This document shows, one piece after another, positions 2,481 to 61,691 of a stretch of 64,000 nt of DNA. The DNA comes from Azolla caroliniana (Eukaryota > Plantae > Polypodiophyta). Location: NCBI GenBank assembly GCA_043228905.1, contig JBHGNT010000002.1:13082001-13146000 (forward strand), read 5' to 3'. Under the pieces are notes generated by a model that made no database searches, had not been told where the DNA came from, and saw only the letters and a list, made by a program, of their open reading frames with translations. Within the stretch, counting starts at the first letter, position 1. Every line of letters begins with the position of its first letter. Both the position numbers and the translations under genes were made by a program.

Positions 2481-2734
2481 GATGTGTTGGTTGATCGGAG
2501 GAGATTAGCATGCAGGGGATTGGGCATGTGCTACCTTCCCTGCCTTATCTTTCTCTGTGTAACATTTTCTTTCACAGGCAGAGTTTTTTTGAAGTCAACT
2601 CCTACTCCTCATCGGTCTTAAGACCAACCAACCTTACTCCCATCACATCACATCTATTTCTTCTCCTCTTCTTCCTGCTACTACTCTAATGTAAGAAAGA
2701 AACCTCAATCGTTTACATTTACTCTGTGCTCTAT

Positions 2735-19109: not shown

Positions 19110-19239
19110 CAGGTACAGTGTGTTTACCTTCCGGTGTCGTAGTGTATTTCGTACACTACGTGAAAAAGTAAAAATAATATAACCGATTTAATTACATATA
19201 AATAAATAAAATAATATATCAAGATATTTATCACGTGCA

Positions 19240-19308
19240 TAGGGCAAGATTCGAACCTTGTACCTCCACGTAACCAAACCTCAACTTTACCATTATGCTA
19301 CCTTATCT
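19240..19308 (-). ncRNA. tRNA-like Pol III cassette in N-family LTR (also ~22109-22177 and ~59805-59873)
   Basis: The minus strand reads GATAAGG TAGCATAATGG (box A) ...GGAGGTACAA GGTTCGAATC (box B) TTGCCCTA, with a 32-nt A-B spacer and T-runs ~30 nt downstream. Confidence 0.6.
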
Positions 19309-19862
19309 TTAGTGTTTTATAAATAGATTTAATAACTATAAGTGCTTTATTTGCGCCTACCTTTATTAAAAGGTAAATCATGTATTTTTAGAGTGCGTGA
19401 ATATTTTATAGGAAAACGCAAGCAACTAAAAAGTGACTCATGCACATCTAGCGTGCATGAGCACTATATTTAGCAAATAAAAGCAAGGATTAGAAAAGCA
19501 TCACATGCACATTTAGTGTGCATGAACATATTAGAAAAAAAGCATGTAGCTATGCTTAGTCTCTCCCATCACTATATAAGGATGGGGAGCACATTGTAGT
19601 TTTTGTTGATTATTTTTCTATAATGATCAATCAATCTAAAATATTCGTGGGATTCACGAATTTGCTAAAATAATTTTCTCTTACTACCTAAATATTGACT
19701 AAATATACTAAACTCGTGGGATTCACGAGATTTTTATCTTATAACTCTTTATACCTATTCTTTACTAGCCTTATTTGTATTTTTCTTTTCTCCTAGTCCA
19801 AAACCCCGGTGGTTCCCACCTGACTCACGCAAACGATCCGGAGCCGAAAGGCACGACACAGT

Positions 19863-19880
19863 TGGTGAACCCGATGTGAA
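19863..19880 (+). promoter_or_regulatory. Primer-binding site complementary to tRNA-Trp (also 60429-60446)
   Basis: TGGTGAACCCGATGTGAA versus the complement of the plant tRNA-Trp(CCA) 3' end as I recall it (TGGTGAACCCGACGTGAA): 17/18, and the mismatch allows G:U. Confidence 0.8.
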
Positions 19881-19896
19881 GGCGGGTGGCAAGGAG

Positions 19897-20931
19897 ATGG
19901 AGAATCAACAAGATGCAATGAGCATAACGATGATTATGATGTTCGAGCGGATGCTACAAGAACAACGAGTGATGTCGGAGATCACGGGGGCAGTAAAGCG
20001 GCTCGTGCGACGAAACGGGGAATTCAACGGTAAGGGTGTGTCACGCTACCTACGTGAATATAAGGCGGAGATGATGCAATATCGGATACCGGAAGGATTG
20101 CAAGTGATATCCTTTAGTCGGGTGGCCTCGGACGAACTACAAGAGAGAATCCACAAGATACAACAACAAAACTCGACATGGGAGTCCTTTGAAGAAGCTT
20201 TACGGGAGACATATGACTATGAGAGATGGACGGGACGAGATCGACGAGAATTCGACGAATGGGTGGCGTCGGAGAAGACTCACCGAAGTGCAACGCAAGC
20301 GTTCCTAGAGTTCGAGCATCGTTTTGCTCGACTCTCGGAGCGGGAACGAAGATTGGTGGGAGAAGATAAAGTCTTAATGTTCGTAAGATCGATCGATCGG
20401 AAAGAAAGGATGGACATTGGGATCGAACTCGAAGATGATGACGGTGCGAATGGTCTTACCGAAGATTGGGCCGAAGTCCAAAGGGTATGCCGGAGACATG
20501 ATGAGAGGAAGATGAGAATCTTGTCAACGACATGGCCAATGAAGGATGGTCGATTGAAGACAAACGATGGAGCCGATATGAAGGCCGAAATACAACATGA
20601 TGGTGTGACGGAAGAGGGTGTAAAACAAGCTACCCTCTTGTCTTGCGAAAGAACGACGGCGAAGGATAAGGCCGATAACCCAAGTGTAGAAGAAGATTTC
20701 GGAATACAAGTGTCCGAAACATCGGGTGAAAAAGGGGTAAGCATAATTGATGTTTGCATAATTGATGCAGTGAAAGAGAGCAAGGAGGACTTGATTGAGG
20801 AGGTCGCCACGAAAGATGACATCGAATCGAAGGTGGCTGGCTATGGACGAATCAACGACGGATGGCCATATCGAGACTTCCCCACCACTGATTCTAGAGA
20901 CTCCGGCGGTTGCGTTCGAAAGGCAACGTGA
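19897..20931 (+). CDS. Gag-like (capsid) protein of N1
   Basis: First ATG at 19897. GEFNGKGVSRYLREY...TWESFEEALRETY resembles Gypsy gag capsid. A near-identical ORF starts at 60463. Confidence 0.65.
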   Translation: MENQQDAMSITMIMMFERMLQEQRVMSEITGAVKRLVRRNGEFNGKGVSRYLREYKAEMMQYRIPEGLQVISFSRVASDELQERIHKIQQQNSTWESFEEALRETYDYERWTGRDRREFDEWVASEKTHRSATQAFLEFEHRFARLSERERRLVGEDKVLMFVRSIDRKERMDIGIELEDDDGANGLTEDWAEVQRVCRRHDERKMRILSTTWPMKDGRLKTNDGADMKAEIQHDGVTEEGVKQATLLSCERTTAKDKADNPSVEEDFGIQVSETSGEKGVSIIDVCIIDAVKESKEDLIEEVATKDDIESKVAGYGRINDGWPYRDFPTTDSRDSGGCVRKAT

Positions 20932-21300
20932 GACCGAAGAGACGGAAGGTGGCGGAGAGAAAACAAAGGTCGAAGTCGATGCATACGACGGAGAGATAGC
21001 CGAGAATATGGCTATGGGTGAAACAATGGAGGATGATAATACCGAGGATTCCTACCCACTAATCCTAGAGACTCCGGCGGTTGCGATCGAAAGGCAACGT
21101 GAGACCGAAGAGACGGAAGGTGGCGGAGAGAAATCAAAGGTTGAAGCTGATGCGTATGACGGAGAGACAACCGAGAATATGGCTATGGGTGAAACAACGG
21201 AGGATGATAATACCGAGGATTCCTACCCACTAATTCTAGAGACTTCGGCGGTTGTGTCCGAGAACCAACGTGAAACCGGAGAGACGGGAGGTGGCAGCAA
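20885..21300 (+). repeat. 171-bp tandem repeat (~2.5 copies) encoding a 57-aa acidic unit
   Basis: PLILETPAVA.ERQRETEETEGGGEK.KVE.DAYDGE..ENMAMGET.EDDNTEDSY is repeated in ORF 20795-21454. Confidence 0.9.
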
Positions 21301-22793
21301 GAAAGGTAAAGTCGGAAGCCGGTTCGGATGGAAGGTGATCCGGACGGGATTCCGATCCGAAAGAAAGCCGAACCGGGCGAATGAGGATTCGGCCGAAAGA
21401 CGACCCAAAAGAAAGCCGACCCGAAAAGGGGTCGACTCGGTCAAAACCGATTGACTGAGTCTGACTTGGCCGAACGCGAATATGGATGGAGGCCGACCTA
21501 GCCGAAAGCCGATCGGACGAGACCGATCCAAAAAGAAGCTAATCCGACTCAACCGGAGGTTGGACCGGTCGAGGCTGGTGAAAACGAGGAAAAGAAAGCC
21601 AACCGAAACCGAAACCGATAGATCGAAACCGGGGCGGAAGGAGACCGACTCAATCGAAACCGAACAACCGATTCCGATTCGGCCGAATATGAATCCGATC
21701 GGACGCCGATCAAACCGAAAGTCGATCGGACGAGAGCGATCCGGAAAAAAGTCAAGGTTGATGAAGACAACAAAGAGGCCAGTAAAAGACACTACCACGA
21801 ATGACAAGGGCCAAGAATATGACGAGAGAGAACAAAGAATATGGTGGATCGGATGGCGACAATGGTTCGGGTGGAAAGAATGGGTCTACTCAAAATGGAG
21901 AGACAAAGTTAACATAGCGGGACAAACGGAGGATGAAGGGGAGACAACGAGCATTGGCAACTTCGGCACATACCGGAGGATGTGCGGGTTCGGAGGGGGC
22001 GAGTGTCGTAGTGTATTTCGTACACTACGTGAAAAAGTAAAAATAATATAACCGATTTAATTACATATAAATAAATAAAATAATATATCAAGATATTTAT
22101 CACGTGCATAGGGCAAGATTCGAACCTTGTACCTCCACGTAGCCAAACCTCAACTTTACCATTATGCTACCTTATCTTTAGTGTTCTATAAATAGATTTA
22201 ATAACTATAAGTGCTTTATTTGCGCCTACCTTTATTAAAAGGTAAATCATGTATTTTTAGAGTGCGTGAATATTTTATAGGAAAACGCAAGCAACTAAAA
22301 AGTGACTCATGCACATCTAGCGTGCATGAGCACTATATTTAGCAAATAAAAGCAAGGATTAGAAAAGCATCACATGCACATTTAGTGTGCATGAACATAT
22401 GAGAAAAAGCATGTAGCTATGCTTAGTCTCTCCCATCACTACATAAGGATGGGGAGCACAATGTAATAGGTGTGTGAAATATTTGGAAATTGGATATATT
22501 TCCGAAAACACCAACCGATTAATATAATCGTGGGATTCACGAAAATAATATAATCTATACTTGTGGGATTCACAAGTTTCTTATATCTTTCTTTCAATCT
22601 AAATACATATTCTTATCTAAATATTGATTAATCGATTACAATACACTCGTGGGATTCACGAGATTCTTATCTTATAACTCTTTATACCTATTCTTTACTA
22701 GCCTTATTTGTATTCTTCTTTCTCCTAGTCCAAAACCTCGGCGGTTCCCACCCGACTCACGCAACGATCCGGAGCCGAAAGGCACGACACCGG

Positions 22794-32000: not shown

Positions 32001-32981
32001 ATGGCCTTAACGGCAACATAGATCCAAGCACCGGTGACTTCAGTATGTGTACAAAATAAAGAAACAGACCAACCTGTACATATTAATAAGACCCCGACAA
32101 TGGAAACCGTTCCAGAGAGAGATGCGGCGCAAGCCCAGGAGCTTGCGGAATTGAGAGATGAACTTGCCGCACAAGAAGCGCTAAGGAGCCGTGAACGGGA
32201 ATTGAAGACAACTGCCGAAGCAGAATTAAAGAAGACTGCTGAGAACCTCCGCTGGGCAGAGGAGAGCCTCTAGAAAGGCCATCAAGCGTACGACCGGCTA
32301 AGGGAGGAAAAAGACAAAGTGCTGCAAGAAAAGGACAAGCTGCGGAAGACGGCGAAAACGGAAATTGAACGGCTAAAGGAGGAGCTCCGCCAGCAAAAGG
32401 ACCGCGAGGACCGGGCCCGTCAACAGATCAACGTACGGCTCAAGTAAAAGACAGATGATTTTGAGCACTTGCATCGGGACTACAAACAGCTGGAAACGGA
32501 GCATAAGGAATGGATGGCCGAGCTCCGGCAGGAAGTTGATCAGGCCGCAACGGCGCTCGCCGACGAACGAACGGAAAATACAAGACAGTTGGACGAGGCG
32601 GAGAAGGTCCGGATGGAGCTCCAAAGGAAGCAGCAGGAAGAAAGGGAGAGAGCGTCAACGGTATTACAAAAATTACAAAGCACATATCAAGGGCAATTGA
32701 CGCATTACAGGGAGCAGGCGGAAGACAACATCATAATCATCAAGCAATTGAAGGAGGAACGACAAGCTGTGGAGATCAAATCGTAGATGGGAACGGGCCG
32801 GATTCAGTGCATCCTCCGGGCATGGCTGAATCAAACAAAACGCTTGATTGACGAAAGCTCCGTAAGATGGTGGACAAAGTGGGCACAAAATACGGCGGAA
32901 CTCCAATTGCTATGGGCAGACGTGGAAAACTGGCGGAAGGAAGGAGATGATTGTTACACGTTGACTTCCGAGGACTTCACC

Positions 32982-33272
32982 TATCATGATATGGCAAGAC
33001 TCGAACCCATGACCTTATGCTACATGGGTCGAGCTCTTGACCATTAAAATATACATTGTAATACGTAGAATATTATTTTCATTTATGTTTTATTATAGAA
33101 AATTGATGTATATTCCAGATTTCTCTAGAACATTCTAGAAACTTCAGGAGTATTCCTTAGAACACTATAAAAGGAGGCACGAGGCATTATTTTGAACCAA
33201 ATCGGTTCAACACCAGTCTTAAGCCTCCTAGCTACTACTGTACATTCTCTTCACATAATATATATCTTTTCT

Positions 33273-33309
<37 letters not shown>

Positions 33310-36300: not shown

Positions 36301-38649
36301 AGTTTGACGCCGCCGAAATCAACTACGAAATTCATGATAAAGAGCTATTGGCTATAATGGACTCTTTTATGCAATGGAGGCATTTTCTAGAGGGATCTTC
36401 TCATCAAGTCACTGTATTCAGTGACCACAAAAACCTCGCCTATTTTCAAGACGCTCGTGTGTTAAATCGAATTCAAGCTCGGTGGGCCCATTTTCTCACG
36501 CGTTTCGACTTCAAGATTACATATCGACCTGGGAAACATCAAGGGAAAGCAGATGCATTATCACGACGTTCGTACCTAGCACCGCGTCCCGGCGAGCCAA
36601 CTTTCGATAACCAAAAGCAAGTAATCTTGGGACCGGCACAATTGCAAGCAACACAAGTCTTTGGCATGCCCATGGATTCCCACGTTATCGATATAATACA
36701 TGTGGACCTGAAGACAGATGCTTTCGCCCAAGCTATACTAGCACAAATTGATCCCTCTCGAGCGTCGTGTTCACAGCCGCAACCACCAGGTACGGACTAT
36801 CGGCAATTCAAATACCATGATGGATTACACTTCTTTAAAGAACTTTTGTATGTTCCTAATGGTTCTTCCCGCCTTCAAGTAGTACAAAACTGTCATGACA
36901 CATATACAGCTGGGCATTTTGGTAGTACTAAAACATTAGATTTAGTACAACGATCATTCTAGTGGCCCCATATGCGACAATTTGTCGAAGATTTTGTTCG
37001 GACTTGTGACACATGCTGCAGAGCGAAAATGCCAAGGCATCATCCATATGGTTCATTAGAACCATTACCAATTCCAAGCAAGCCGTGGCAATCCATTGCT
37101 CTAGACTTCATCACAGATCTTCCAGTCTCTAAGGGGTTCAATGCGATTCTAACAGTGGTAGATCGATATACGAAGATGGCTCATTTTTTGCCATGTACTA
37201 AGGAAATCTCCAGTGAAGACACCGCCGAAATTGTCATGCGTGAAGTATGTCGGCATCATGGACTTCCCGATAGTATCGTCAGCGACCGTGGACCCCAGTT
37301 CGTGTCAAAATTCTGGAAGCACCTTTTTAAAATGCTCAAGGTCACTTGTAACCTCTCCTCTGGCTACCACCCACAAACCAACGGCCAAGCCGAACGGACA
37401 AATCAAACGCTGGAGCAGTACCTGCAGTGCTTTCTCAGCTATCATCAGGATGACTGGGCAGATATTCTCCACTTCGCCGAATTTGCCTATAATAACTCTA
37501 TCCATGCATCGACTAAAGTTATGCCATTTTATGCTGATACGGGATGTTAGCCCTGGTGGTGTGTACTTCAAACACTGGAGCAGTACCTGCGGTGCTTTCT
37601 CAGCTATCATCAGGATGACTGGGCAAATATTCTCCACTTCGCCGAATTTGCCTATAATAACTCTATCCATGCATCGACTAAAGTTACGCCATTTTATGCT
37701 TATACGGGATGTCAGCCCCGGTGGTGTGTACTTGAAACCCCAGAGGTGTCCACAAATCCTTGCGCGGAGGATCGTTTGGAGCGGTTACGCAAGATACAAG
37801 CAGATTTATCTACTCATCTCCAACAAGCTCAGCAAACACACAAGGTTTATGTGGATCGTCATCGACTCCCATCCAGTTTTAACATTGGAGATCGGGTATG
37901 GCTACTCCGACGACACATCAAGACTACTCGCCCATGTGAGAAGTTGGATTATCGGCGATTAGGTCCTTTCTGTATCATAGGAAAGATTAATGATGTCGCT
38001 TTTCGTCTCGATCTACCTCCACAACTTCGGATACATCCGGTGTTTCATAGTTCTCTCCTTTAACCCTATCAAGAGAGCACCATCCCAGGATGTATTACAC
38101 AGCCTCCACCCCCGATTGAGCTTGAAGATGGACCTGAGTACGAGGTTACCGCCATCCTTGATTCCAAGATTGTTCGCAACAAGCTCTACTATCTAGTCGA
38201 TTGGCTAGGATATAGTCCTAGTGAGCGTACTTGGGAACCGATAGAGAATGTCACCAATGCTCGTGCACTTCTTGAAGACTTCCATCATCAATATCCAGAC
38301 AAACCGGGTCCTCAATCCAAAACGACTCGTTACACTCTTCGTTTTAAAGGGAGGATAGCGTCATGATATGGCAAGACTCAAACCCATGACCTTATGCTAC
38401 ATGGGTTGAGCTCTTGACCATTAGACTATACATTGTAATATGTAGAATATTATTTTCATTTATGTTTTATTATAGAAAATTGATGTATATTCCAGATTTC
38501 TCTAGAACATTCTAGAAACTTTAGGAGTATTCCTTAGAACACTATAAAAGGAGGCACGAGGCATTATTTCGAACCAAATCGGTTCAACGCCAGTCTTAAG
38601 CCTCCTAGCTACTACTGTACATTCTCTTCACATAATATATATCTTTTCT

Positions 38650-38693
<44 letters not shown>

Positions 38694-38797
38694 TCCTCTC
38701 ACTCATTCTTTCCTTCTCTCGAGAGTTCTTCACCTCTCTTAGTACTAATACTTCTTTTAGTACTAATTCCTTCTCTGTCTTAGTATTGTTCCTGACA
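32982..38797 (+). mobile_element. Chromovirus G1 (degenerate): LTRs 32982-33412 and 38359-38797, TSD TCACC
   Basis: tcacc at 32977-32981 and 38798-38802. gag, LLDSGA, YLDD, integrase and chromodomain fragments. PPT aaagggaggatag. Confidence 0.94.
37404..37735 (+). repeat. ~165-bp tandem duplication in the G1 integrase
   Basis: caaac(g/a)ctggagcagtacctgc...ggtggtgtgtactt occurs twice (37404 and 37569). Confidence 0.88.
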
Positions 38798-47492: not shown

Positions 47493-50400
47493 TGATAATA
47501 ACAAAAGATATGTATTATGTTAAGAGAATAGACAATAGTAGCTAGGAAGCTTGGCATTGAACCGATTTGGTTCGAAATAATACCTTGTGCCTCCTTTTAT
47601 AGTGTTCTCAAGAGTACTCCTGAAGTTTCTAGAATGTTCCAGAGAAACTTGGAATATACCTCAATTTTCTATAGTAAAATTTAAATGAAAATAATATCTT
47701 TTGTATTACAACGTATAGTCTAATCGTCAAGAGCTCGATCCATGTAACATAAGGTCATGGGTTCGAGTCTTGCCATATCATGACACTATCCCTCTTTTAA
47801 AACGATGAGTGTCACGAGTTGTTTTGGATTGAGGACCCGGTTTGTCTGGATATTGATGATGGAAGTCTTCAAGAAGAGCACGAGCATTGGTCACATTCTC
47901 TATTGGTTCCCAAGTACGCTCGTTGGGACTATATCCTAGCCAATCGACTAAACAGTAGAGCTTGTTGCGAACAATCTTGGAATCGAGGATGGCGACAACC
48001 TTGTACTCAGGTTCATCTTCAAGTTCGATCGGGGGTGGAGGTTGTTTAGTACGACCTAGGATGGTGCTGTCTTGATAGGGTTCGAGGAGAGAACTATAAA
48101 ACACCGGATGTATGTATCTCAATTAGTAAGGCTGTCGAATGGATACCATGAGTTCATGGCTTTAACCCCTACATTTTAGACTAAATGCAAATAATATCCT
48201 TTGTATTACAACATATAGTTTAATGGTCAAGAGCTCGACCCGTGTAACATAACATCATGGGTTCGAGTCTTGCCATATCATGACACTATCCCCTTTTTAA
48301 AACGACGAGTGTCACGAGTCGTTTTGGATTGAGGACCTGGTTTGTCTGAATATTGATGATGGAAGTCTTCAAGAAGAGCACGAGCATTGGTCACATTCTC
48401 TATTGGTTCCCCCAAGTACGCTCGCTGGGACTATATCCTAGCCAATTGACTAAATAGTAAAGCTTGTTTCGAACAATCTTGGAATCAAGGATGGCGGCAA
48501 CCTCGTACTCAAGTCCATCTTCAAGCTCGATCGGGGGTGGAAGTTGGTTAATATGACCTAGGATGGTGCTGTCTTGATAGGGTTCGAGGAGAGAACTATA
48601 AAACACCGGATGTATCCGAAGTTGTTGAGGTAGATCGAGATGAAAATCGACATCATTAATTTTCCTGATAATACGAAAAGAACCTAATCGCCGGTAATCC
48701 AACTTGTCGCATGGTGAGTAGTCTTGATGTGTCATCGTAGTAGTCACACCCGATCTCCATTGTCAAAATTGGATGGAAGCCGATGACGATCTGCATAAAC
48801 CTTGTGTGTTTGTTAAGCTTGCTGTAGATGAGTAGAAAAATCAGCTTGTATCTTTTGCCGCTCCAAACGATCCTCTACACAAGGATTTATGGGTAACTCT
48901 GGGGTTTTAAATACAGACCACCGAGGGTGATAGCCCGTGTAAGCATAAAATGGTGTCACCTTTGTCGATGAGTGGACAGAGTTATTATACGCAAATTCGG
49001 CGAACTGGAGAATATCCGCCCAATCATCTTGATGATAGCTTAAAAAGGATCGAAGATACTGCTCAAGCGTTTGATCTGTTCGTTCTGCTTGGCCGTCTAT
49101 TTGCAGGTGGTAGCCGGAGGAGAGGTTACAAGTGACCATAAGCATTTTAAAGAGGTGCTTCCAGAACTTTGAGACGAACTAGGGTCCACGGTAGCTGATG
49201 ATACTATCAGGAAGGCCATGATGCCGACATACTTCACGCATGATAATTTTGGCGGTTTCTTCACTGGAGATTTCCTTAGTACATGGCAGGAAATGGGCCA
49301 TCTTCGTATATCGATCTACTACTGTTAAGATCGCATTGAATCCCTTAGAGACCAGAAGATCTATGATGAAATCTAGGGCAATGGACTCCCATGGCTTCCT
49401 TGGAATTGGTAATGGTTCTAATAAACCATATGGATGATGCCTTGGCAGTTTTGCTCTGCAACATGTATCACAAGTCCAAACAAAATCTTCGACAAATTGT
49501 CGCATATGGGGCCAACAGAAGGATCATTGTACTAAATCTAGTGTTTTCGTACTACCAAAATGCCCAGCTAGAAAATGCCTCCATTGTGTAAAAGAGTCCA
49601 CTATTGCTAATAGCTCCTTATCATGAGTTTCATAGTTGATTTGGCAGCGTCAAACTTGTGTAAGTGGAAAGCCACAAGATGTAGCTTTTCATCATCGCCT
49701 TGTTGTGACAGAGTGCTACCCAAGGCGAAATCTAACGCGTTTGCTTCGATGATTAATGGTTTTTCCGGATCAACATGAGCTAGAATAGGAGCTTATGTAA
49801 ATGCCTTCTTAAGACTCTCAAAAGCCATGTCTGCTTCTTCAGTACAAACGAACGATTGTCCCTTCCTTGTAAGTTGTGTGAGAGGCAGAACAAGCTTTGA
49901 GTAATCCTGTATAAACTTGCAATAGAAATTGGCAAAGCTGAAAAAGCATTGCACATCTTGTATCGAACGTTGAGTCTGCCACTCTACCACTGTTTTGGCC
50001 TTAGCTGGATCCATGAAGATGCCTTCCGAAGAAATGACATAGCCCAGAAATTCTACTTGGTTGCACTCGAAACGACATTTTTCCAGCTTTGCATAAAGAC
50101 CATGTTCTTGAAGTCGTTTTAGTACTAACAGTACATGAGAATCATGCTCTTCTTGGGTCTTCGAATAAACCAGTAGATCATCCAAATAGATGATCAAACA
50201 AACATCCAAGAGATCTCGAAATATATCATTTGCCTTGTGTTGGAAGACTGTTGGTGCATTAGTGAGGCCAAATTGCATGACCGTATACTCGAAGTGCCCA
50301 TATCTGGTGCGAAACACGGTCTTCCATTCATCTCGTGATCGGATCCGTACGAGGTTATATGCTCCTCGTAAGTCCATCTTTGTAAAGAACCTTGCACCAT

Positions 50401-52965
50401 TGATCCGTTCCAAAAGACTTAAGATAAGGGGAACTGCATACCTATTCCTGATGGTGACCTTATTCAAGCCACAATAATCTATGAAGAGACGAAGTGATCC
50501 ATCCTTTTTCTTGACGAAGAAAATGGGTGCGCCCGTTGGAGATTTTGAATGTTGAATGAAACCATTTGCCAAATTCTACTCAATATAGGCTCGAAGGAAT
50601 TCTAGCTTGGTTGATGAAAAATTGTAGATCAGTCCCCATGGTAGCTCTTTTCCCGGTTGTAAATCAATGGGACAATCATATGGTCGATGGTGAGGAAGTG
50701 CATTGGCTTGTACTTTATCGAGCACATCGGCATAGTGACGATACTTCTCTGGAAGTTGCAAGATGGACTCCTCTTTAGTGGTGTTGGAGGGTTTTACTAA
50801 TATTGTGAAAAGAAACATTTCTTCCTCGCGTCCTTCCTCACACAATTGATGTAGCGAAATGGCCGCAATCTTATGAGTAGATTCTCGGGTTCGTCGATAC
50901 AAGATTTCTCTTGTTCTCCAATCTATGTCTAGGTTATGTAATTTGAACCATGGTAATCCCAAAACAATGGGATGTTCTAGGATACTAATTATATTAAAGG
51001 ATACTACACACGTTAAATTATCTAGGACAATATTAATGGTCTCTAACTCTTTTATGATATTTCTGGAAGCAATGGGATGACCATCAATGACTACTACAAA
51101 GGCTAGACTAGGGAGTTTTCTTAGGGATATCTGATGAGCTTGGGAAAAATTCCTATCCATGAAGCAGGAATTAGCTCTAGAATCTAGGAGTGCTAAGACA
51201 TGTAACGGAGAGGTACTTTTAGTACTAACTGTTACTTGGGCTAAGAACACATTGCTAACTTGCTTAGAGGGAATGGAACCACTAATGGGTTGCACAGATC
51301 TAGGTCTGTCCAACCAAACGGCTCCTATTTTGGCTTGACTTAGTCATTTAACTCTTCTTCTAACTGACTAAGGACATCAAATTTGTTCAACAGATTTGGG
51401 TTATTAGTACTATTAAGACTATTAGATATTCCTACTGAAATAGACACAGGTTTAGTACAATTAGAACTAGCAAATTTTTGGTTTACCTTTCTTCTTGGCC
51501 TATGGGGACAGTTCACTGCAATATGCCCTAGTCCACCGCAATAAAGACATAGTCGATTTGCTCGGCGTCGATGCTTTTCTTCTTCCGGTAATGGTCCAAG
51601 GTGATGTGTAGTGTCAATTTCCATCGGAGTTGGAGTATTCACTAGAGATGCATTATATGACTCCCTTGGTAAAGGTTTAGCTACAACAGAGGTGTAGGTG
51701 GGCTCTGATCTTGCCCTTGGCATCTGGAACTGACGTTCGGAACGTCGTTCGAAAAGACGGTTGCCGCATCTCAGCGTGTGACTGATTGCTTCTGTCAATG
51801 ACTTTGGTTCTTCGGGGAAGGTCAAGAGTAAATCCATCGTTACGTAGACCATAACGAAATTGCTCCATTAGTGCTTGGTCATCCCAAGGGATATCGGAGG
51901 CGAGTAGGCGGAAATCTACAACGTATGCGGAGGCTGGACAATCACCTCGACATAATTGTCGGATTTTGTTGATTGATGTCCTTATGCTGTCAGTATGTCC
52001 AAAACAAGCTTTAAACTCACTTAAAAACTCTTCAAATTTTTTTAGTAAAGGAGATTCCTTTTCTAACAACGGAGCGAACCATGCCAAAGCTGAGCCAGTT
52101 AACAACGTGCCTACTAAACCCATTCGTGATGCATCAGTGGGATATCGGGAAGGATGCATTTGAATGACTAGTCATACCAGATTAAGGAATCCTCTAAACT
52201 ATGATCGCGTTCCATTGAATTTCATGGGAAGGCCGATCTTGGGTTCTTTATTAATCCCTTGCATATTGGGTCCTTGTTGTTGCATCGGTACTATGGTTGC
52301 TTCGAGCTGTTGCATGCGTAACACTAGTTCTCCATGTTTTTGTCGCGTCTGTTGCTTCTCTAAGGAGATTTGTTGAAGCTCCCCCAACAGTTGTTGATTT
52401 TCTTGTTCCAATGCGAGAAAATTCTCTTTCAAGCATTGCAACTCCGAGAAAACGGATTGATATTCTTGAGCGCTAACAATGACCATAGTATGAGAGAAAA
52501 GAGGAATAAGAGATTAGTATGAAGGGAGTAGGAAGTAAGAAGTTAAGGAAGAGAAGGAAGGAGACTAAAATCGGTTCAAACTGTCAGGAACAGTACTAAG
52601 ACAAAGAAGGAATTAGTACTAAAAGATGAGGATTAGTAAGAGAGAGAAATCAAGAGAGAGAGAGAATGATGATAACAAAAGATATATATTATGTTAAGAG
52701 AATATACAATAACAGTTAAGAGGCTTAAGACTGACGTTGAACCGATTTGGTTTGAAATAATGCCTTGTGCCTCCTTTTATAGTGTTCTTAGGAGTACTCC
52801 TTAAGTTTCTAGAATGTTCTAGAGAAATCTGGACCATACCTCAATTTTCTATAGTAAAACTTAAATGAAAATAATATCTTTTATATTACAACGTATAGTC
52901 TAATAGTCAAGAGCTCGACCCATGTAACATAATGTCATGGGTCCGAGGCTTGCAATATCATGATA
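47493..52965 (-). mobile_element. Chromovirus G2 (degenerate): 5' LTR 52582-52965, partial 3' LTRs 47493-47785 and 48182-48285
   Basis: Fragments homologous to G3 gag and pol. RNase H-integrase deletion near 49570. Duplicated chromodomain + LTR end. No TSD recoverable. Confidence 0.88.
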
Positions 52966-53430: not shown

Positions 53431-53571
53431 ATGGTATATGTCAGGAACTCTATTAAGGCAGAGAAGGAATTAGTACTAAAAGAAGGATTAGTACTATTGT
53501 TGGGGAATAGTACTAAGACAGAGAAGGATTAGTACTATGAGAGGTGTCGAACTTTGAGAGAAGGAATGAGT

Positions 53572-53615
<44 letters not shown>

Positions 53616-53835
53616 TGATGCGAAAGATATATGTATTATATGAAGGAAGATATACAACAGTAGTTAGAAGGCTTAAGACTGGCGTTGAACCGATTTGGTT
53701 CGAACTAATGCCTTGCGCCTCCTTTTATAGTGTCTTCAGGAATACTCCTGAAGTTTCTAGAATGTTCCAGAGAAATCTGGAATATACATCAATTTCCCAA
53801 TAAAACCTAAATGAAAATAATATCCTTCAAATTAC

Positions 53836-53905
53836 AATTCATAACCTAATGGTAAAGTCTCGACCCGTGTAACAAAAGGTTATGGGTTCGAGTCTAGTTA
53901 TGACA
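53836..53905 (+). ncRNA. tRNA-like Pol III cassette at the U3 edge of G-family LTRs, antisense to the element
   Basis: Box A taacctaatgg at 53842-53852 (TAGTCTAATGG in the G1 3' LTR) and box B ggttcgagtc at 53885-53894, with a 32-nt spacer. G1/G2 copies read AAGGTCATGGGTTCGAGTC, like a tRNA variable loop + T arm. Confidence 0.6.
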
Positions 53906-56900
53906 CTATCCCCCCTTTAAAACGACGAGTTCCACGAGTCGTTTTGGATTGAGGACCCGGTTTCTCGGGATATCGTCGATGGAAGTCTTCTAGAAGAGCA
54001 CGAGCATTGGTCACATTCTCGATCGGTTCCCAAGTACGCTCGCTGGGACTATATCCTAGCCAATCGACTAGATAGTAGAGCTTGTTGCGAACAATCTTGG
54101 AATCGAGGATGGCAGCGACCTCATACTCAGGTCCATCTTCGAGCTCGATAGGAGGTGGTGGTTGTATAGTACGTCCTGGGATAGTGCTCTCGTGATAGGG
54201 TTCGAGGAGAGAACTATGAAACACCGGATGTATCCGAAGTTGCGGAGGTAGCTCGAGACGAAAAGCGACATCATTAATCTTCCCGATAATACGGAAAGGA
54301 CCTAATCGCCTATAATCCAACTTCTCACATGGGCGAGTAGTCTTGATGTGTCGTCGTAGTAGCCACACCCGATCTCCAATGTTAAAACTGGATGGAAGTC
54401 GATGACGATCTGCGTAGTCCTTGTGTGATTGTTGAGCTTGCTGGAGTTGAGTAGATAAATCTGCTTGTATCTTGCGTAATCGCTCCAAACGATCCTCCGC
54501 GCAAGGATTTGTGGACACTTCTGGGGTTTCAAGGACACACCACCGGGGATGATATCCCATATAAGCGTAGAATGACGTGACTTTAGTCGATGCGTGGATA
54601 GCGTTATTATAGGCAAATTCGGCAAACTGAAGAATATCTGCCCAGTCATTCTGATGATAGTTGAGAAAGCACCGCAGATACTGCTCCAGTGTTTGATTTG
54701 TTCGTTCGGCTTGACCGTCGGTTTGTGGGTGGTAGCCGGAGGAGAGGTTACAAGTGACCTTCAGCATTTTAAAAAGGTGCTTCCAGAATTTTGACACAAA
54801 CTGGGGTCCACGATCGCTGATGATATTATCAAGGAGTCCATGATGCCGACATACTTCCCGCATGACAATTTCGGCGGTGTCTTCACTAGATATTTCTTTA
54901 GTACATGGTAAGAAATGAGCCATCTTCGTATATCGATCCACCACTGTGAGAATCGCACTGAATCCCTTAGAGACTGGAAGATCTGTAATGAAGTCAAGAG
55001 CAATGGATTGCCATGGCTTGCTTGGAATTGGTAATGGTTCTAATAAACCATATGGATGATGTCTTGGCATTTTCGCTCTGCAGCATGTATCGCAAGTCCG
55101 AACAAAATCTTCGACAAATTGTCGCATATGGGGCCACCAGAATGATCGTTGTACTAAATCTAATGTTTTAGTACTACCAAAATGTCCTGCTGTATATGTG
55201 TCATGGCAGTTTTGTACTACTCGAAGGCGGCAAGAACCATTAGGAACATACAAAAGTTCTTTAAAGAAGAGTAATCCATCACAGTATTTGAATTGCCGAT
55301 AATCCGTACCTGGTGATTGTGATTGTGAACATGACGCTCGAGAGGGGTCAATTTGTGCTAGTATAGCTTGGGCGAAAGCATCAGTCTTCAAGTCCTCACG
55401 TATAGTATTGGTAATGTCGGAATCCACGGGCATGTCAAAGACCTGTGCTGCTTGCAGTCGTGCTGGACCCAAGATTACTTGCTTCTGGTTATCGAAAGCT
55501 GGCTCACCGGGACGTGGTGTTAGATACGAACGCCGTGATAATGCATCTGCCTTCCCTTGGTGCTTCCCCGGACGATATGTAATTTTGAAGTCGAAGCGTG
55601 TGAGGAAGTGGGCCCACCGAGCTTGACGTCGATTCAGTACACGAGCATCTTGAAAGTAGGCAAGGTTCTTGTGGTCACTGAATACAGTGACCTGATGAGG
55701 AGATCCCTCCAGGAAATGCCTCCATTGCATAAAAGAATCAACTATTGCTAATAGCTCTTTATCATGAATTTCGTAGTTGATTTCGGCGGCGTCAAACTTA
55801 CGGGAGTGGAAAGCCACAGGATGTAGCTTCTCGTCGTTACCCTGTTGTGACAGAATGCTCCCCAATGCGAAATCCGATGCGTCAGCTTCGATAATGAATG
55901 GTTTTTCCGGATCCACATGACCTAAAATTGGAGCTGATGTAAACGCCTTCTTAAGACTCTCGAAAGCCATGTCCGTCTCTTTAGACCAAATGAATGATTG
56001 TCCCTTCCTCGTGAGCTGTGTGAGAGGCAGCACAATTTTTGAGTAATTTTGTATGAACTTCCGGTAAAAATTTGCAAAGCCTAGGAAGCATTGCACATCC
56101 CGCACCGAACGCGGAGTGTGCCATTCTATCACCGTTTTGACCTTGGCTGGGTCCATAGATATGCCTTCTGAGGAGATGACATAGCCGAGAAATTCCACTT
56201 GGTTGCACCCGAAACTACATTTCTCTAACTTTGCATACAGACCATGTTCTCGAAGTCGTTTTAGTACTAATAGTACATGAGAATCATGTTCTTCTTGGGT
56301 CTTTGAATAAACCAGTAGATCATCCAAATAGATGATCAAAAAATCATCCAAGAGATCTCGAAATATATCATTCACCATGTGCTGGAAGACTGCCGGCGCA
56401 TTAGTGAGTCCGAACGGCATGACCGTATACTCGAAGTGCCCATATCTGGTGCGAAACGCGGTCTTCCATTCATCTCCTGGTCGGATCCGTACGAGGTTAT
56501 AGGCTCCTCGTAAGTCGATCTTCGTGAAGAACCTGGCACCGTTGATCCGTTCTAAAAGACTTGAGATAAGGGGAAGAGCATACCTATTTCTTACTGTGAC
56601 CTTATTCAAGCCACGGTAATCTACAACGAGTCGAAGCGAGCCATCTTTTTTCTTGACGAAGAAAATGGGTGCGCCGGCTGGAGATTTCGAATGCCGAATG
56701 AAACCGTTCTCCAAATTCTCCTCTATATAGGCTCGAAGGACTTCTAGCTCGGTTGGTGACAAATTGTAGATCGGCCCCCATGGCGGCTCTTTTCCCGGTT
56801 GTAAGTCGATGGCGCAATCGTACGGCCGATGATGAGGAAGTGTGTTGGCTTGTACTTTATCGAACACATTAGCATACTGACGATACTTCTCGGGAAGTTG

Positions 56901-57494
56901 AACGGTGGACTCCTCTTTGGTGGTGCTGGAGGGTTGTACTGATATTGCGAAGAGAAACATTTCCTCCTTGCGCCCTTCCTCACGCAACTGACGTAGCGAA
57001 ATGGTTGCAACCTTCTGGGTAGATCCTTGGGTTTGTCGCAACCGGATTTCCCTTGTCCTCCAATCTATGTCTGGGTTATGTAACTCGAACCATGGTAATC
57101 CTAAAACTATGGGATGTTCTGGAATACTAATAATATTAAATGATACTACACATGTTAAGTTATCTAGGACAATATTAACGGGTTCCGACTCTTCTATGAT
57201 ATTACCAGAAGCAATGGGACGACCATCAATGACTACTACTGAGGCTGGACATGGGAGCTTTCTGAGAGATATCTGATGAGCTCGGGCAAAATTCCTATCC
57301 ATGAAGCAAGAATTAGCTCCGGAATCTAGAAGGGCTAAGGTATGTACTGGAGGGGTACTTTTAGTACTAACTGCTACTTGGGCTACGAACACATCACTAA
57401 CTTGCTTAGAGGGAATGGAACCACTAATGGGCTGCACAGATCTAGGGCTGTCCAACCAAACGGCTCCTATTTTGGCTGGACTTAGTCGTTTAAC
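53898..57494 (-). CDS. G3 Pol (protease, RT, RNase H, integrase, chromodomain), probably expressed by -1 frameshift from gag
   Basis: >1185-codon open frame with no 5' ATG. Motifs LLDSGA, YLDD, EADASD, HHCC/D,D35E, GPF and YEVAAILDS...YLVDWLGY...TWEP (chromodomain). Confidence 0.93.
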   Translation of the reverse strand, partial: VKRLSPAKIGAVWLDSPRSVQPISGSIPSKQVSDVFVAQVAVSTKSTPPVHTLALLDSGANSCFMDRNFARAHQISLRKLPCPASVVVIDGRPIASGNIIEESEPVNIVLDNLTCVVSFNIISIPEHPIVLGLPWFELHNPDIDWRTREIRLRQTQGSTQKVATISLRQLREEGRKEEMFLFAISVQPSSTTKEESTVQLPEKYRQYANVFDKVQANTLPHHRPYDCAIDLQPGKEPPWGPIYNLSPTELEVLRAYIEENLENGFIRHSKSPAGAPIFFVKKKDGSLRLVVDYRGLNKVTVRNRYALPLISSLLERINGARFFTKIDLRGAYNLVRIRPGDEWKTAFRTRYGHFEYTVMPFGLTNAPAVFQHMVNDIFRDLLDDFLIIYLDDLLVYSKTQEEHDSHVLLVLKRLREHGLYAKLEKCSFGCNQVEFLGYVISSEGISMDPAKVKTVIEWHTPRSVRDVQCFLGFANFYRKFIQNYSKIVLPLTQLTRKGQSFIWSKETDMAFESLKKAFTSAPILGHVDPEKPFIIEADASDFALGSILSQQGNDEKLHPVAFHSRKFDAAEINYEIHDKELLAIVDSFMQWRHFLEGSPHQVTVFSDHKNLAYFQDARVLNRRQARWAHFLTRFDFKITYRPGKHQGKADALSRRSYLTPRPGEPAFDNQKQVILGPARLQAAQVFDMPVDSDITNTIREDLKTDAFAQAILAQIDPSRASCSQSQSPGTDYRQFKYCDGLLFFKELLYVPNGSCRLRVVQNCHDTYTAGHFGSTKTLDLVQRSFWWPHMRQFVEDFVRTCDTCCRAKMPRHHPYGLLEPLPIPSKPWQSIALDFITDLPVSKGFSAILTVVDRYTKMAHFLPCTKEISSEDTAEIVMREVCRHHGLLDNIISDRGPQFVSKFWKHLFKMLKVTCNLSSGYHPQTDGQAERTNQTLEQYLRCFLNYHQNDWADILQFAEFAYNNAIHASTKVTSFYAYMGYHPRWCVLETPEVSTNPCAEDRLERLRKIQADLSTQLQQAQQSHKDYADRHRLPSSFNIGDRVWLLRRHIKTTRPCEKLDYRRLGPFRIIGKINDVAFRLELPPQLRIHPVFHSSLLEPYHESTIPGRTIQPPPPIELEDGPEYEVAAILDSKIVRNKLYYLVDWLGYSPSERTWEPIENVTNARALLEDFHRRYPEKPGPQSKTTRGTRRFKGGIVS

Positions 57495-58651
57495 TCTTCT
57501 TCTAATTGGCTAAGGACATCAAATTTGTTTGCGAGATTCGGACTATTAGTACTATTAGGACTATTATGACTATGAGGACTATCAGAGATTCCTACTGAAA
57601 TAGACTCGGGTTTAGTATAGTCAGAACTAACAACGACTTGGTTTACCTGCCTTCTTGGTCTATGGGGACAGTTTATCGCGATATGCCCTGGTCCACCGCA
57701 ATAAAGGCATAATCGGTTTGTTCGGCGTCGTTGCTTTTCCTCCTCCGATAGCGGCCCACGACGACGTGTAGTGTCAATTTCCATTGGAGTTGGAGTACTT
57801 ACTGGAGGCGCATTATGTGACTCCCTTTGAAAAGGTTTCGCTACCACTGAGGCATAGGTAGGCTCGGATCTTGCCCTCGGCATCTGAAATTGTCGTTCCG
57901 AACGTCGCTCGAAGAGGCGGTTGTCACATCTGACCGCTCGACTGATTGCTTCTGTTAATGATTTTGGCTCTTCAGGGAAGGTCAAGAGTAAATCCTTGAC
58001 ATCGTTGCGTAGACCATAGCGGAACTGCTCCATCAATGCTTGATCATCCCAGGGGATATCGGCGGCGAGTAGGCGGAAATCTGCAGCATATGCGGAGGCT
58101 GGACGGTCACCTTGGCGTAATCGCCGGATTTTGTTGATTGCAGTCCTTATGCTGTCAGTATCTCCAAAACATGCTTTAAACTCACTTATGAATTCTTCAA
58201 AATTATTTAGTACTGGAGATTCCTTTTCTAGTAGCGGAGCGAACCATGCTAATGCTGAGCCATTTAACAACGTGCCTACTAAACCCACTCGTGATGCATC
58301 GGTGGGATATCGGGACGGATGCATTTGAATAACTAACCGTACCTGGTTAAGAAACCCTCTAAACTGCGATCGCGTTCCATCGAACTTCGTGGGAAGGCCA
58401 ATCTTGGGTTCTTTATGAATCCCTTGTGCTCCGTGCCCTTGTTGTTGCATTGCTACGATGGTTGCTTCGAGTTGTTGCACGCGTAACGCAAGTTCCCCAT
58501 GCTGTTGTTGCGTTTGCTGCTTTTCTAAGGAAATTTGCTGAAGATCCCCCAACAAGCGTTGATTTTCTTGTTCCAAAGCATGAAACTTCTCTTTCAAGCA
58601 TTGAAATTCCGAGAAAACGGATTGATACTCTTCAGCGCTAACGGTGGCCAT
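57482..58651 (-). CDS. G3 Gag (coiled coil, capsid, CCHC knuckle)
   Basis: 389-aa ORF with PTKFDGTRSQFRGFLNQ, LRQGDRPASAYAADF and CLYCGGPGHIAINC. Confidence 0.93.
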   Translation of the reverse strand: MATVSAEEYQSVFSEFQCLKEKFHALEQENQRLLGDLQQISLEKQQTQQQHGELALRVQQLEATIVAMQQQGHGAQGIHKEPKIGLPTKFDGTRSQFRGFLNQVRLVIQMHPSRYPTDASRVGLVGTLLNGSALAWFAPLLEKESPVLNNFEEFISEFKACFGDTDSIRTAINKIRRLRQGDRPASAYAADFRLLAADIPWDDQALMEQFRYGLRNDVKDLLLTFPEEPKSLTEAISRAVRCDNRLFERRSERQFQMPRARSEPTYASVVAKPFQRESHNAPPVSTPTPMEIDTTRRRGPLSEEEKQRRRTNRLCLYCGGPGHIAINCPHRPRRQVNQVVVSSDYTKPESISVGISDSPHSHNSPNSTNSPNLANKFDVLSQLEEELND

Positions 58652-58885
58652 GGGATGAAGGAAAAGGGAAATAAGAGACTAGTAGGAAAGGAGGGAGACA
58701 GAAGGAAGAGGGAGAGAAAAGACCAGACAGGCACCCAGAAATCGGTTCAAACTGTCAGGAACTCTATTAAGGCAGAGAAGGAATTAGTACTAAAAGAAGG
58801 ATTAGTACTATTGTTGGGGAATAGTACTAAGACAGAGAAGGATTAGTACTATGAGAGGTGTCGAACTTTGAGAGAAGGAATGAGT

Positions 58886-58925
<40 letters not shown>

Positions 58926-59220
58926 TGATGCGAAAGATATATGTATTATATGAAGGAAGATATACAACAGTAGTTAGAAGGCTTAAGACTGGCGTTGAAC
59001 CGATTTGGTTCGAACTAATGCCTTGCGCCTCCTTTTATAGTGTCTTCAGGAATACTCCTGAAGTTTCTAGAATGTTCCAGAGAAATCTGGAATATACATC
59101 AATTTCCCAATAAAACCTAAATGAAAATAATATCCTTCAAATTACAATTCATAACCTAATGGTAAAGTCTCGACCCGTGTAACAAAAGGTTATGGGTTCG
59201 TGTCTAGTTATGACAGTATA

Positions 59221-61691
59221 GTCCCCCGATTTTCAATCCGGAGAGAACAGCTCGACGGTATGCCGACTGAAAAAGTCCCTCTATGGACTAAAACAAGCCT
59301 CTGCACGTGGAACACGAAGATCACGTAGCGCCTGCATCACTGGGTTTCCGATGTCCAAATCAGACTCTTCATTGTTCGTCCGGTAAGGTTGACATGGACC
59401 GGTTAGTATTTTACTTTATGTTTATGATTTAGTCATCGTCATCACTGACCTAGATGAAATTGGCCAAGTAAAGTCCCAGCTCGTGGCATCATTCTACATG
59501 AAGGAACTAGGGAACCTTCATTACTTCCTAGGGATCGAAGGGATCTGCACCCCCGAAGGCATACTGATCAGCCAACGACATTACGTGTTGCATATGCTCT
59601 TCAAGTTTGAGATGGCAGACTGTAAGTCTATCTCAACTCCTTTGGACAGAAATGTCAAGCTTCGCCGAGATTCGGGAAAGGTGTGCGACCCGACACGGTG
59701 TCGTAGTGTATTTCGTACACTACGTGAAAAAGTAAAAATAATATAACTGATTTAATTACATATAAATAAGTACAATAAGAATATCAAGATATTTATCACG
59801 TGCATAGGGCAAGATTCGAACCTTGTACCTCCACGTAGCCAAATCTCAGCTTTACCATTATGCTACCTTATCTTTAGTGTTCTATAAATAGATTTAATAA
59901 CTATAAGTGCTTTATTTGCGCCTACCTTTATTAAAAGGTAAATCATGTATTTTTAGAGTGCGTGAATATTTTATAGAAAAAACGCAAGCGACTAAAAAGT
60001 GACTCATGCACATCTAGCGTGCATGAGCACTATATTTAGCAAATAAAAGCAAGGATTAGAAAAGCATCACATGCACATTTAGTGTGCATGAACATATTAG
60101 AAAAAAAGCATGTAGCTATGCTTAGTCTCTCCCATCACTATATAAGGATGGGGAGCACATTGTAGTTTTTGTTGATTATTTTTCTATAATGATCAATCAA
60201 TCTAAAATATTCGTGGGATTCACGAATTTGCTAAAATAATTTTCTCTTACTACCTAAATATTGACTAAATATACTAAACTCGTGGGATTCACGAGATTTT
60301 TATCTTATAACTCTTTATACCTATTCTTTACTAGCCTTATTTGTATTTTTCTTTTCTCCTAGTCCAAAACCCCGGTGGTTCCCACCTGACTCACGCAAAC
60401 GATCCGGAGCCGAAAGGCACGACACAGTTGGTGAACCCGATGTGAAGGCGGGTGGCAAGGAGATGGAGAATCAACAAGATGCAATGAGCATAACGATGAT
60501 TATGATGTTCGAGCGGATGCTACAAGAACAACGAGTGATGTCGGAGATCACGGGGGCAGTAAAGCGGCTCGTGCGACGAAACGGGGAATTCAACGGTAAG
60601 GGTGTGTCACGCTACCTACGTGAATATAAGGCGGAGATGATGCAATATCGGATACCGGAAGGATTGCAAGTGATATCCTTTAGTCGGGTGGCCTCGGACG
60701 AACTACAAGAGAGAATCCACAAGATACAACAACAAAACTCGACATGGGAGTCCTTTGAAGAAGCTTTACGGGACGCATATGACTATGAGAGATGGACGGG
60801 ACGAGATCGACGAGAATTCGACGAATGGGTGACGTCGGAGAAGACTCACCGAAGTGCAACGCAAGCGTTCCTAGAGTTCGAGCATCGTTTTGCTCGACTC
60901 TCGGAGCGGGAACGAAGATTGGTGGGAGGAGATAAAGTCTTAATGTTCGTAAGATCGATCGATCGAAAAGAAAGGATGGACATTGGGATCGAACTCGAAG
61001 ATGATGATGGTGCAAATGGTCTTACCGAAGATTGGGCCGAAGTCCAAAGGGTATGCCGGAGACATGATGAGAGGAAGATGAGAATCTTGTCAACGACATG
61101 GCCGATGAAGGATGGTCGATTGAAGACAAACGATCCGGAGCCGAAAGGCACGACAACGGTTCCGAAAGATTGTCCACAGCCTAATTTATTTGATGATGAC
61201 TCGGCCAGATCCCAGTTACCCAGTCGGCCTAATCAGTCAATTTATGTTGTAGCCCACGACCGAACACCTTCAGTGCACGCAAAGGATATTGCGCTATGTC
61301 CGTGGCACTAAGGATGGGGTGTTGCTATATCGGGTAGGAGTAGCCGAGTAGCTAGTCCATTATATGGATGCCAATTGGGCCGAAAATGCCGGCAATTGCA
61401 GATCAACATCTGGATATGCATCTTCATTGGGAAGTGCAGTGATCACATGGAGCAGTATAAAACAGTCAATAGTGGTGTATAATAGACTGGTTGCGTAAAC
61501 TGGGTACGCAACGAGAGGCCATAGTGGTGTATAATAGAGGTTTGGAATAGAGTTTTCTGTGTTCTGCTCTCTCTGTCTCTCCCGCGTACGTTGTGCTGAT
61601 TAAGCTTTCCATTAAACCTTCCTTGTCTCTTTGTCTTTTGTTTGTTGTTACCCGGTTGTATCTGTTAAGCTTCCGCACGTATTCTTTTACA
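59221..61691 (+). mobile_element. Copia F remnant (C-related): RT/RNase H pieces 59221-59698 and 61160-~61465, partial 3' LTR ending 61691
   Basis: VCRLKKSLYGLKQA and LHYFLGIE motifs; CDPTR|FRKIV across N2. LTR end gcttccgcacgtattcttttaca resembles the Copia C LTR end. Confidence 0.8.
59699..61155 (+). mobile_element. N2: deleted N-family copy (5' LTR 59699-60424, PBS, gag 5' part, last ~27 bp of the 3' LTR); 4-bp TSD ACGG
   Basis: acgg at 59695-59698 and 61156-61159. The deletion joins internal aaacgat(ggagccga) to LTR aacgat(ccggagccga). Confidence 0.92.

Follow-up and report, generated by a model that had tools for sequence, protein, structure and literature searches.

A tRNA-derived box A/box B cassette recurs, mostly antisense, in the LTRs of two retrotransposon lineages of Azolla caroliniana

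The LTRs of two distant groups of retrotransposons in Azolla caroliniana, one Tcn1-like and one Phygy-like, contain a tRNA-derived pair of Pol III boxes A and B, mostly antisense to the element and situated between the LTR start and the TATA box. Judged from its sequence, this cassette is selected at the level of the element family and is broader in distribution than first described, with a predicted role as a TFIIIC/Pol III site at the DNA level. Our preferred reading, to which we give slightly less than an even chance, is that the box pair works as DNA, being a predicted site for TFIIIC (probably together with TFIIIB) that would shield or open the Pol II promoter of those copies that transpose.

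The Cassette in the G3 LTR

The whole stretch analyzed, hereafter the window, spans 64 kb (C2:13,082,001-13,146,000 of the 523-Mb assembly) and holds one host gene, a PPR gene (204..2504, minus strand) with its best named relatives in Adiantum and Ceratopteris, the remainder being nested retrotransposons. A TA/GTAT microsatellite at 2726-2813 gave spurious Rfam miRNA matches. The carrier element G3 occupies 53439-59215 on the minus strand (5,777 bp) within a 5-bp duplication, GTATA, and has open gag (57482..58678) and pol (53898..57509) frames, the latter encoding protease, RT, RNase H, integrase, and a chromodomain (PF00385, E 2e-14). Its 3′ LTR (53439..53905, TG..CA ends) is paired with a 5′ LTR at 58753..59215, and its polypurine tract lies at 53906..53920. 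The pol frame crosses this tract and stops at 53898-53900, 6-8 nt into U3 and just behind box B. The G3 family is young, since the two LTRs are near-identical and the best 40 of 1,554 G3 candidates genome-wide are identical over 170 nt.

G3 lacks a tRNA primer-binding site. In its place stands a 12-nt leader (58739..58750, minus strand) that complements the transcript's predicted 5′ end, where a predicted self-primer stretch (58995..59008, minus strand; 3′ LTR copy 53685-53698) follows 33 nt behind the TATA-like box of the 5′ LTR (59031-59040, minus strand), and this pattern of self-priming is the one given for the Tcn1 clade in PMC6317226. The TATA-like box of the 3′ LTR (53721..53730, minus strand), a putative promoter element, is located 111 nt from box A and back to back with the cassette. 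With a chromodomain-bearing Ty3 pol and self-priming, G3 is by its sequence features a Tcn1-like chromovirus, the RT tree containing no named Tcn1 reference. Tf1-type self-priming complementarity was seen in families G, T56, and T66. In SM-Tcn1 of Selaginella the leader also complements, by eye, a stretch behind the TATA box, though PMC2864245 reports that no evidence of this was found. Ten G3 LTRs are clustered at C2:12,246,800-12,277,800 (L251-L254); four of them repeat in tandem at intervals of 3,190 nt, and another was inserted at the leader of a further copy.

The cassette of the G3 3′ LTR lies at 53835..53905 on the plus strand, antisense to the element, and corresponds to tRNA positions 1-72, with position 72 at the LTR terminus. 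Scored with a matrix built from 13 tRNAs of this genome, box A (TAACCTAATGG, 53842..53852) reached 10.7 bits and box B (GGTTCGAGTC, 53885..53894) 17.4 bits, both on the plus strand. The 32-nt spacer (53853..53884, plus strand) ends in AGGT, a variable-loop remnant, while its anticodon stem retains 1/5 pairs. A box A and a box B conforming to GWTCRANNC, the consensus given in PMC4228148, are thus combined at a workable type-2 Pol III promoter spacing. That 32 nt is a tRNA spacing, as the first-pass annotation had it, is confirmed by this genome's own tRNA-Lys, -Trp, -Gln, -Cys, and -His (nuclear and organelle-type), and its tRNA-Asn, -Ile, -Arg, -Asp, and -Met have 33 nt. In the 5′ LTR, the cassette (59145..59215, plus strand; box A 59152-59162, box B 59195-59204) carries A>T at 59201 and departs from GWTCRANNC at one position. 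The substitution between the two G3 LTRs does fall in box B, as had been noted (A at 53891, T at 59201), yet it is accompanied by a 4-nt indel (GA repeat); it is one event and carries no weight.

All seven G-family LTR ends of the window carry the cassette, four of them with a damaged box. In addition to the two of G3, these are the 5′ LTR of G1 (32982..33058, minus strand; spacing 33, the site at 33051 having a changed box A) and its 3′ LTR (38359..38435, minus strand; the site at 38375 lacking the invariant box-B C), together with three of G2 on the plus strand, namely one LTR at 47709..47785 (the site at 47716 missing a G of box A), a truncated LTR at 48209..48285, and a degraded cassette in a 5′ LTR at 52889..52965 (both boxes damaged, 52896-52949). 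Several details of the original description need adjustment. A 32-nt spacing had been ascribed to every G end, but in G1 and G2 it is 33; the distance from box B to the terminal TGACA, put at about 10 nt, is 6 nt in G3 and 11 nt in G1/G2; and the variable loop given as AAGGTC reads AAGGTT in G3. The cassette was also said to point out of the element, which is true of 5′ LTR copies, where it faces the flank, but the copy singled out belongs to the 3′ LTR and aims inward at the polypurine tract and the end of pol.

Distribution across LTR Retrotransposons

To choose LTRs by protein alone, chromodomain tblastn matches of at least 60% identity were used as anchors, and a site was called where antisense boxes A and B of at least 18 bits lay within 400 nt. 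Among 25 chromodomain-anchored 3′ LTRs of this genome, 20 had the cassette antisense and none had it sense. Three of the five misses belong to family T63 and the other two have no detectable LTR start. In T63 a box B remains within an inverted repeat, 5 nt short of the LTR end, and box A is poor and lies at a distance of 39 nt. The T63 LTR (L204:8095, L235:5475, L242:2376) opens with a perfect 7-8 bp inverted repeat of which box B forms the loop. In metagenome and IMG/VR sequences, no cassette was found at any of 72 chromodomain matches below 60% identity (52 with at least 300 nt to scan), among them L102 at 54%, and both matches at or above 60% (L101, L125) were carriers. Inspection by eye of the SM-Tcn1 LTR from Selaginella revealed no cassette.

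In the 464 kb around the window, 36 LTRs were classified by tblastn to the window proteins and by reading of primer sites, and 11 had an antisense cassette (spacing 32-33, 16.6-29.2 bits), comprising seven Tcn1-like LTRs and four of a second, Phygy-like lineage. The others scored below 16 bits, with no cassette in 15 Copia, five Athila/Tat-like, two tRNA-Met-primed chromovirus, and three unclassified LTRs. The claim that the cassette stands at the edge of every chromovirus LTR is therefore untenable, given the two tRNA-Met-primed LTRs, the 72 distant chromoviruses, and T63 with box B only. Nor does the suggested link with the chromodomain survive, as Phygy-like non-chromoviruses carry the cassette and other chromoviruses are without it. 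In one Athila/Tat-like family (window 25901-39725, junction near 39298; L077, L078-L079), a tRNA-3′-end-like stretch replaces the polypurine tract, 2-3 nt before the 3′ LTR.

The second lineage is represented in the window by family H. One element (19135..22789, plus strand), with no RT or integrase match, has TSD CCGG, a tRNA-Trp primer-binding site, and a polypurine tract, and carries the cassette on the minus strand in its 5′ LTR (19248..19300, box B 114 nt inside the LTR start) and its 3′ LTR (22117..22169). A third H LTR, running from 59699 onward, has it at 59813..59865, also on the minus strand. H elements measure 3.1-3.7 kb; the interior of this one (19699-22051) looks noncoding and contains a 171-nt tandem repeat at 20838-21350 and A-rich open frames, and 19699-20931 has no Pfam match. 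A 7.5-kb coding relative has the cassette in both LTRs. Members of the lineage show 4-bp NCGN TSDs (CCGG, ACGG, GCGG) and a primer site complementary to this genome's tRNA-Trp, which are the marks of Phygy according to PMC6317226. From these sequence marks, H and its kin are Phygy-like, and in an RT tree without a Phygy reference the lineage forms a long separate Ty3 branch. Not all Phygy-like places have the cassette, which was missing from 4/9 anchored by integrase and 1/5 anchored by primer site. Sense cassettes were found only in families M, with one or two antisense cassettes before the TATA box and one sense cassette behind it, and N, with a sense cassette before the TATA box. A Phygy-like solo LTR, L207 (C8:7,701,963-7,703,016; TSD GCGG), has three A/B units, two antisense and one sense, and sits in the gag of a Tcn1-like element.

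In an RT-RNase H tree (68 rows, with 18 hand-chosen loci offered out of 90 foreign ones, and long branches meeting near the root), the Phygy-like branch was far from the chromoviruses, with noncarriers between. G, T66, and L101 formed a clade (100/99) whose sister was the noncarrier L102, and T63 fell outside with weak support. This distance between carriers implies two or more gains of the cassette, or a single gain followed by transfer between lineages in this host. Its recurrence in two lineages and its absence from chromovirus relatives of other hosts suggest a host-specific gain. By eye, G and H cassettes have similar letters behind box B. Around the units inspected, no tail and TSD of their own, a SINE2 feature, were seen. 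A facing A/B pair 180 nt apart (L242:5688 and L242:5870; C2b 55688, 55870) was not assigned to any LTR and may represent free SINE heads.

Abundance and Conservation

Across 1.064 Mb, consisting of the window with 400 kb of adjacent sequence and three 200-kb tracts selected because they contain G3 copies, the tRNA-based matrix detected 64 sites of at least 22 bits, compared with 0-2 in five shuffles. Genome-wide, TRRTGGT-N30-32-GGTTCRARTC had 8,007 matches and its backward-read control 2; true tRNA genes are included in a number not separated, and many of the first 100 matches are recognizable LTR families. At gap lengths off the tRNA value, 122 matches occurred at 33-40 nt and 139 at 22-29 nt (eight lengths each). 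A further 1,474 sites are without the invariant box-B C, and in some cases both LTRs of a single element seem to be affected.

Among 18 family representatives, mean pairwise identity was 0.81 in box B, 0.68 in box A, and 0.61 in the last nine spacer letters (the AGGT remnant), versus 0.32 in mid-spacer and 0.36 and 0.38 in the flanks, which agrees with the earlier expectation that the boxes are better conserved than the spacer. The box values are inflated because the representatives were picked by the box matrix, and the unbiased test is the protein-anchored LTR tally rather than these 18 rows. Spacing was 31-33 in all 18. In blastn between G, T66, and T56 LTRs, only box B or the self-priming stretch aligned. 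Where a TATA-like box was found, it lay 111-227 nt from box A, and box B was situated 5-70 nt from the cDNA end in Tcn1-like families and 45-500 nt inside in Phygy-like ones. Box identity, tight spacing, and recovery by protein-only LTR choice uphold the first-pass interpretation of a tRNA-derived, putative type-2 Pol III promoter under selection. The variable-loop AGGT (alignment columns 49-52), outside both boxes, is also kept in at least 90% of 33 rows.

A Possible RNA Product

The covariance analysis proposed at the outset went against a tRNA, with none detected by ARAGORN or Rfam (RF00005) in the 64-kb window and no common fold across families, a combination that fits a promoter rather than an RNA. 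In G3, paired positions number 2/7 in the acceptor stem, 3/4 in the D stem, 1/5 in the anticodon stem, and 4/5 in the T stem. Over the 18 representatives, the acceptor stem has 0-5/7 and the anticodon stem 1-4/5 pairs, both being broken in all, and the anticodon position shifts.

The foremost alternative to a DNA site, which we nevertheless consider unlikely, is a working Pol III gene with a useful RNA that would tune the element or act as a decoy for silencing, being either a short antisense transcript that starts in the 3′ LTR and crosses the polypurine tract into the end of pol, or a hairpin processed to small RNAs like that of foamy-virus LTRs. It accords with the retention of box A and of the spacing, as transcription requires, and SFV miRNAs arise from U3 Pol III units, as reported in PMC3993851. 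The folding data are divided. A stable rod is predicted for the G lineage alone (z -2.3 to -5.8, 4/4), but the upstream U3 of G3, G5, and G2 folds nearly as well (z -3.2 to -4.1), and the mean fold z of -1.1 equals that of the upstream U3 stretch (-1.1). RNAalifold returned 0 shared pairs for 33 rows. The T-arm was paired in 72% of cells, which is near the level expected from relatedness, given 68% in shuffles (17/500 as high) and 70% (69.7%) after a one-column slide.

Termination is similarly divided, as a T4 run lies 36 nt beyond the G3 LTR end in 28/30 fetched copies, while across families the first T4 run is 0-143 nt behind box B and missing in 2/19. Orientation varies as well, and transcripts from 5′ LTRs would enter arbitrary flank. 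Without a shared fold or a constant terminator position, no RNA product is kept across families. Together with the boxes and their spacing, AT-rich upstream DNA is retained across families, AT content at -45..-8 being 71-87% in 17/19, in a U3 that is AT-rich anyway. Poly(A) libraries of a related organism, which are unsuited to short Pol III RNA, gave matches in 108, 85, and 135 of ~12 million reads each in three runs and in seven contigs of one run, none 99% alike and in both directions. Matches in a sigma-70 scan were at chance level.

CpG Decay and the Origin of the Boxes

Of 2,665 copies of G1, G2, and G5, 425 (15.9%) have lost the box-B CpG and 396 (14.9%) the spacer CpG, both CpGs being embedded in TCGA. 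Between the members of 14 LTR pairs, CpG positions differed at 4/24 in box B, 5/32 in the spacer, and 15/114 upstream, and A/T positions hardly differed. The CpG near the start site was lost in 240/991 (24%), a value from another copy subset that is not comparable with the box-B figure. Decay looked strand-biased in the first 100 copies, with TG:CA ~3:1 on the cassette strand at both sites. Loci L001-L030 are nearly all 3′ LTRs. As the box-B CpG decays like its neighbors, inserted copies are likely methylated across the cassette, and any benefit is confined to young or source copies. The equal decay in and around box B weakens the case for a lasting barrier.

This decay is what would be expected if the boxes were neutral, that is, if heads of tRNA-type SINEs or tRNA copies had fallen into the U3 of several founders and been carried along, an explanation we judge somewhat less probable than an RNA product. 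The patchy presence of the cassette and the persistence of the non-box AGGT are consistent with such a relic, and SINE insertion into LTRs has been proposed as the origin of Helenus and Cassandra in PMC10886601. Against it, the boxes and their spacing have outlasted a U3 that no longer aligns, despite loss of the box-B CpG in ~16% of copies, and the position upstream of the TATA box recurs in two lineages. The spacers are also far from any of 12 tRNAs of this genome (best z 5.6), so the captures would be old. As to a donor, best z values against these 12 tRNAs, an incomplete set, ranged from 0.8 to 5.6 and the top match shifted among Trp, Ile, Asn, Arg, Lys, Asp, and Gln; because of this change from spacer to spacer, no donor tRNA is named.

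Possible Action on cDNA or as a tRNA

The boxes could instead act on unintegrated cDNA, where TFIIIC would aid nuclear positioning or target choice, or a terminal hairpin would aid plus-strand priming or integrase loading. The closeness of the Tcn1-like box B to the cDNA end invites this idea, as does the targeting of Ty1 and Ty3 through the Pol III machinery described in PMC4228148 and PMC12786077, but the Phygy-like boxes are set well inside and no hairpin is shared. Moreover, a single weak ARAGORN call was made in the 1.064 Mb, which hold 18 G3 LTRs, so G3 copies are not clustered at tRNA genes there, and we regard action on cDNA as improbable. That the cassette is a functional tRNA or a primer can be largely dismissed, since its length and box positions fit tRNA numbering exactly but neither program called a tRNA in the window, the stems are broken, and priming is explained by self-priming in G and by tRNA-Trp in H.

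A Predicted TFIIIC Site

Under the preferred reading of a box pair acting as DNA, the cassette would descend from a tRNA or a tRNA-type SINE, by two or more captures or by a single one followed by transfer between lineages. TFIIIC would bind the boxes, with TFIIIB probably placed on the AT-rich DNA on the side toward the TATA box. The bound factors would phase nucleosomes, maintain an open Pol II promoter, and block silencing or read-through entering from the flank for long enough that new copies could form. Young copies would gain a full-length transcript, which would be the only level of selection, after which inserted copies would decay. TFIIIC binding and all downstream steps are extrapolated from work in yeast and mouse. 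The orientation flips in M and N and the T63 box B with its poor box A are expected of a binding site. Box A and the exact spacing exceed the needs of a B-box barrier. Also counting against the TFIIIC site are the retention of the non-box AGGT and the 1,474 sites without the invariant box-B C. Successful Copia and Athila/Tat-like families, moreover, and several Phygy-like LTRs do without the cassette. Product-independent boundary, nucleosome-phasing, and roadblock effects are described for yeast tDNA and ETC sites in PMC4228148. We found no published demonstration of a TFIIIC barrier in plants, and for this subject the relevant part of PMC13578239 cites yeast work.

The boldest form of this explanation holds that two distant coding LTR clades converged on their own tDNA-type TFIIIC boundary as an anti-silencing device, which would seed the 523-Mb genome with ~8,000-9,500 Pol III boxes and amount to the first plant Pol III insulator and a new cis-acting counter-defense; we consider this possible but doubtful. 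If the cassette does form a TFIIIC boundary, its carriers would have a cis-acting means of escaping silencing, and plant tDNA insulators could be tested with thousands of natural polymorphic copies.

Comparison with Known Systems

The closest likeness is with Helenus TRIMs and TRIMp3, in which both LTRs contain a tRNA-derived sequence that keeps boxes A and B but is neither a functional tRNA nor the primer (Kojima 2024, PMC10886601). In the same account Helenus has one plant member, in Selaginella. Helenus elements are noncoding and shorter than 1.3 kb, unlike the fern carriers, which include coding elements of 5.7-7.5 kb with a TATA box. The Helenus cassette is sense (4/4 LTRs inspected in the supplement of PMC10886601) and is proposed there to transcribe the element, whereas the fern cassette is mostly antisense and hence cannot make genomic RNA. 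According to PMC10886601, tRNA-like parts occur in "not a few LTRs" of Repbase, and only TRIMs were analyzed in that account; comparable LTRs may therefore sit undescribed in Repbase, and a partial precedent may exist.

Cassandra and Ajax TRIMs likewise have the Pol III promoter of a small-RNA gene inside plant LTRs, but it is 5S-derived, drives their own transcript, and belongs to nonautonomous elements (PMC10886601, PMC12786077). The U3 miRNA units of foamy viruses share an A/B-box Pol III promoter within an autonomous, Pol II-driven LTR element; as described in PMC3993851, a hairpin RNA and a terminator are central to them, while the fern cassette keeps neither across families and has tRNA geometry. 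Yeast tDNA and ETC sites and mouse B2 SINE boundaries are TFIIIC sites that act independently of a product on Pol II promoters or chromatin, as predicted for the fern cassette, and mouse B2, itself mobile, also has a TATA box for Pol II on its other strand; these boundaries lie outside LTRs and were shown in yeast and mouse (PMC4228148, PMC8136502).

As for the carriers, G resembles the Tcn1 clade in its gag-pol with a chromodomain, length of ~5.7 kb, 5-bp TSD, and self-priming (PMC6317226, PMC2864245), and H and its kin resemble the Phygy clade in their 4-bp NCGN TSD and tRNA-Trp primer site (PMC6317226). Descriptions of the two clades come from mosses and, for Tcn1, also from Selaginella, and no LTR cassette is mentioned in the sections of PMC6317226 and PMC2864245 that describe them. 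In the open-access literature, we found no report of coding LTR elements from plants with A/B boxes in antisense. Pol III promoters in plant LTRs are otherwise known only from miniature noncoding elements, which use them for their own transcription.

Should the boxes prove neutral, their thousands of copies could still titrate TFIIIC, and they can mislead the annotation of tRNAs and SINEs. Elsewhere in the assembly, tandem clusters of tRNA-Lys/Asn, tRNA-Trp, and tRNA-Ile, some of them degenerate, were observed at C5:17.99 Mb, C8:17.80-17.82 Mb, C16:4.99-5.11 Mb, and C2:20.11 Mb.
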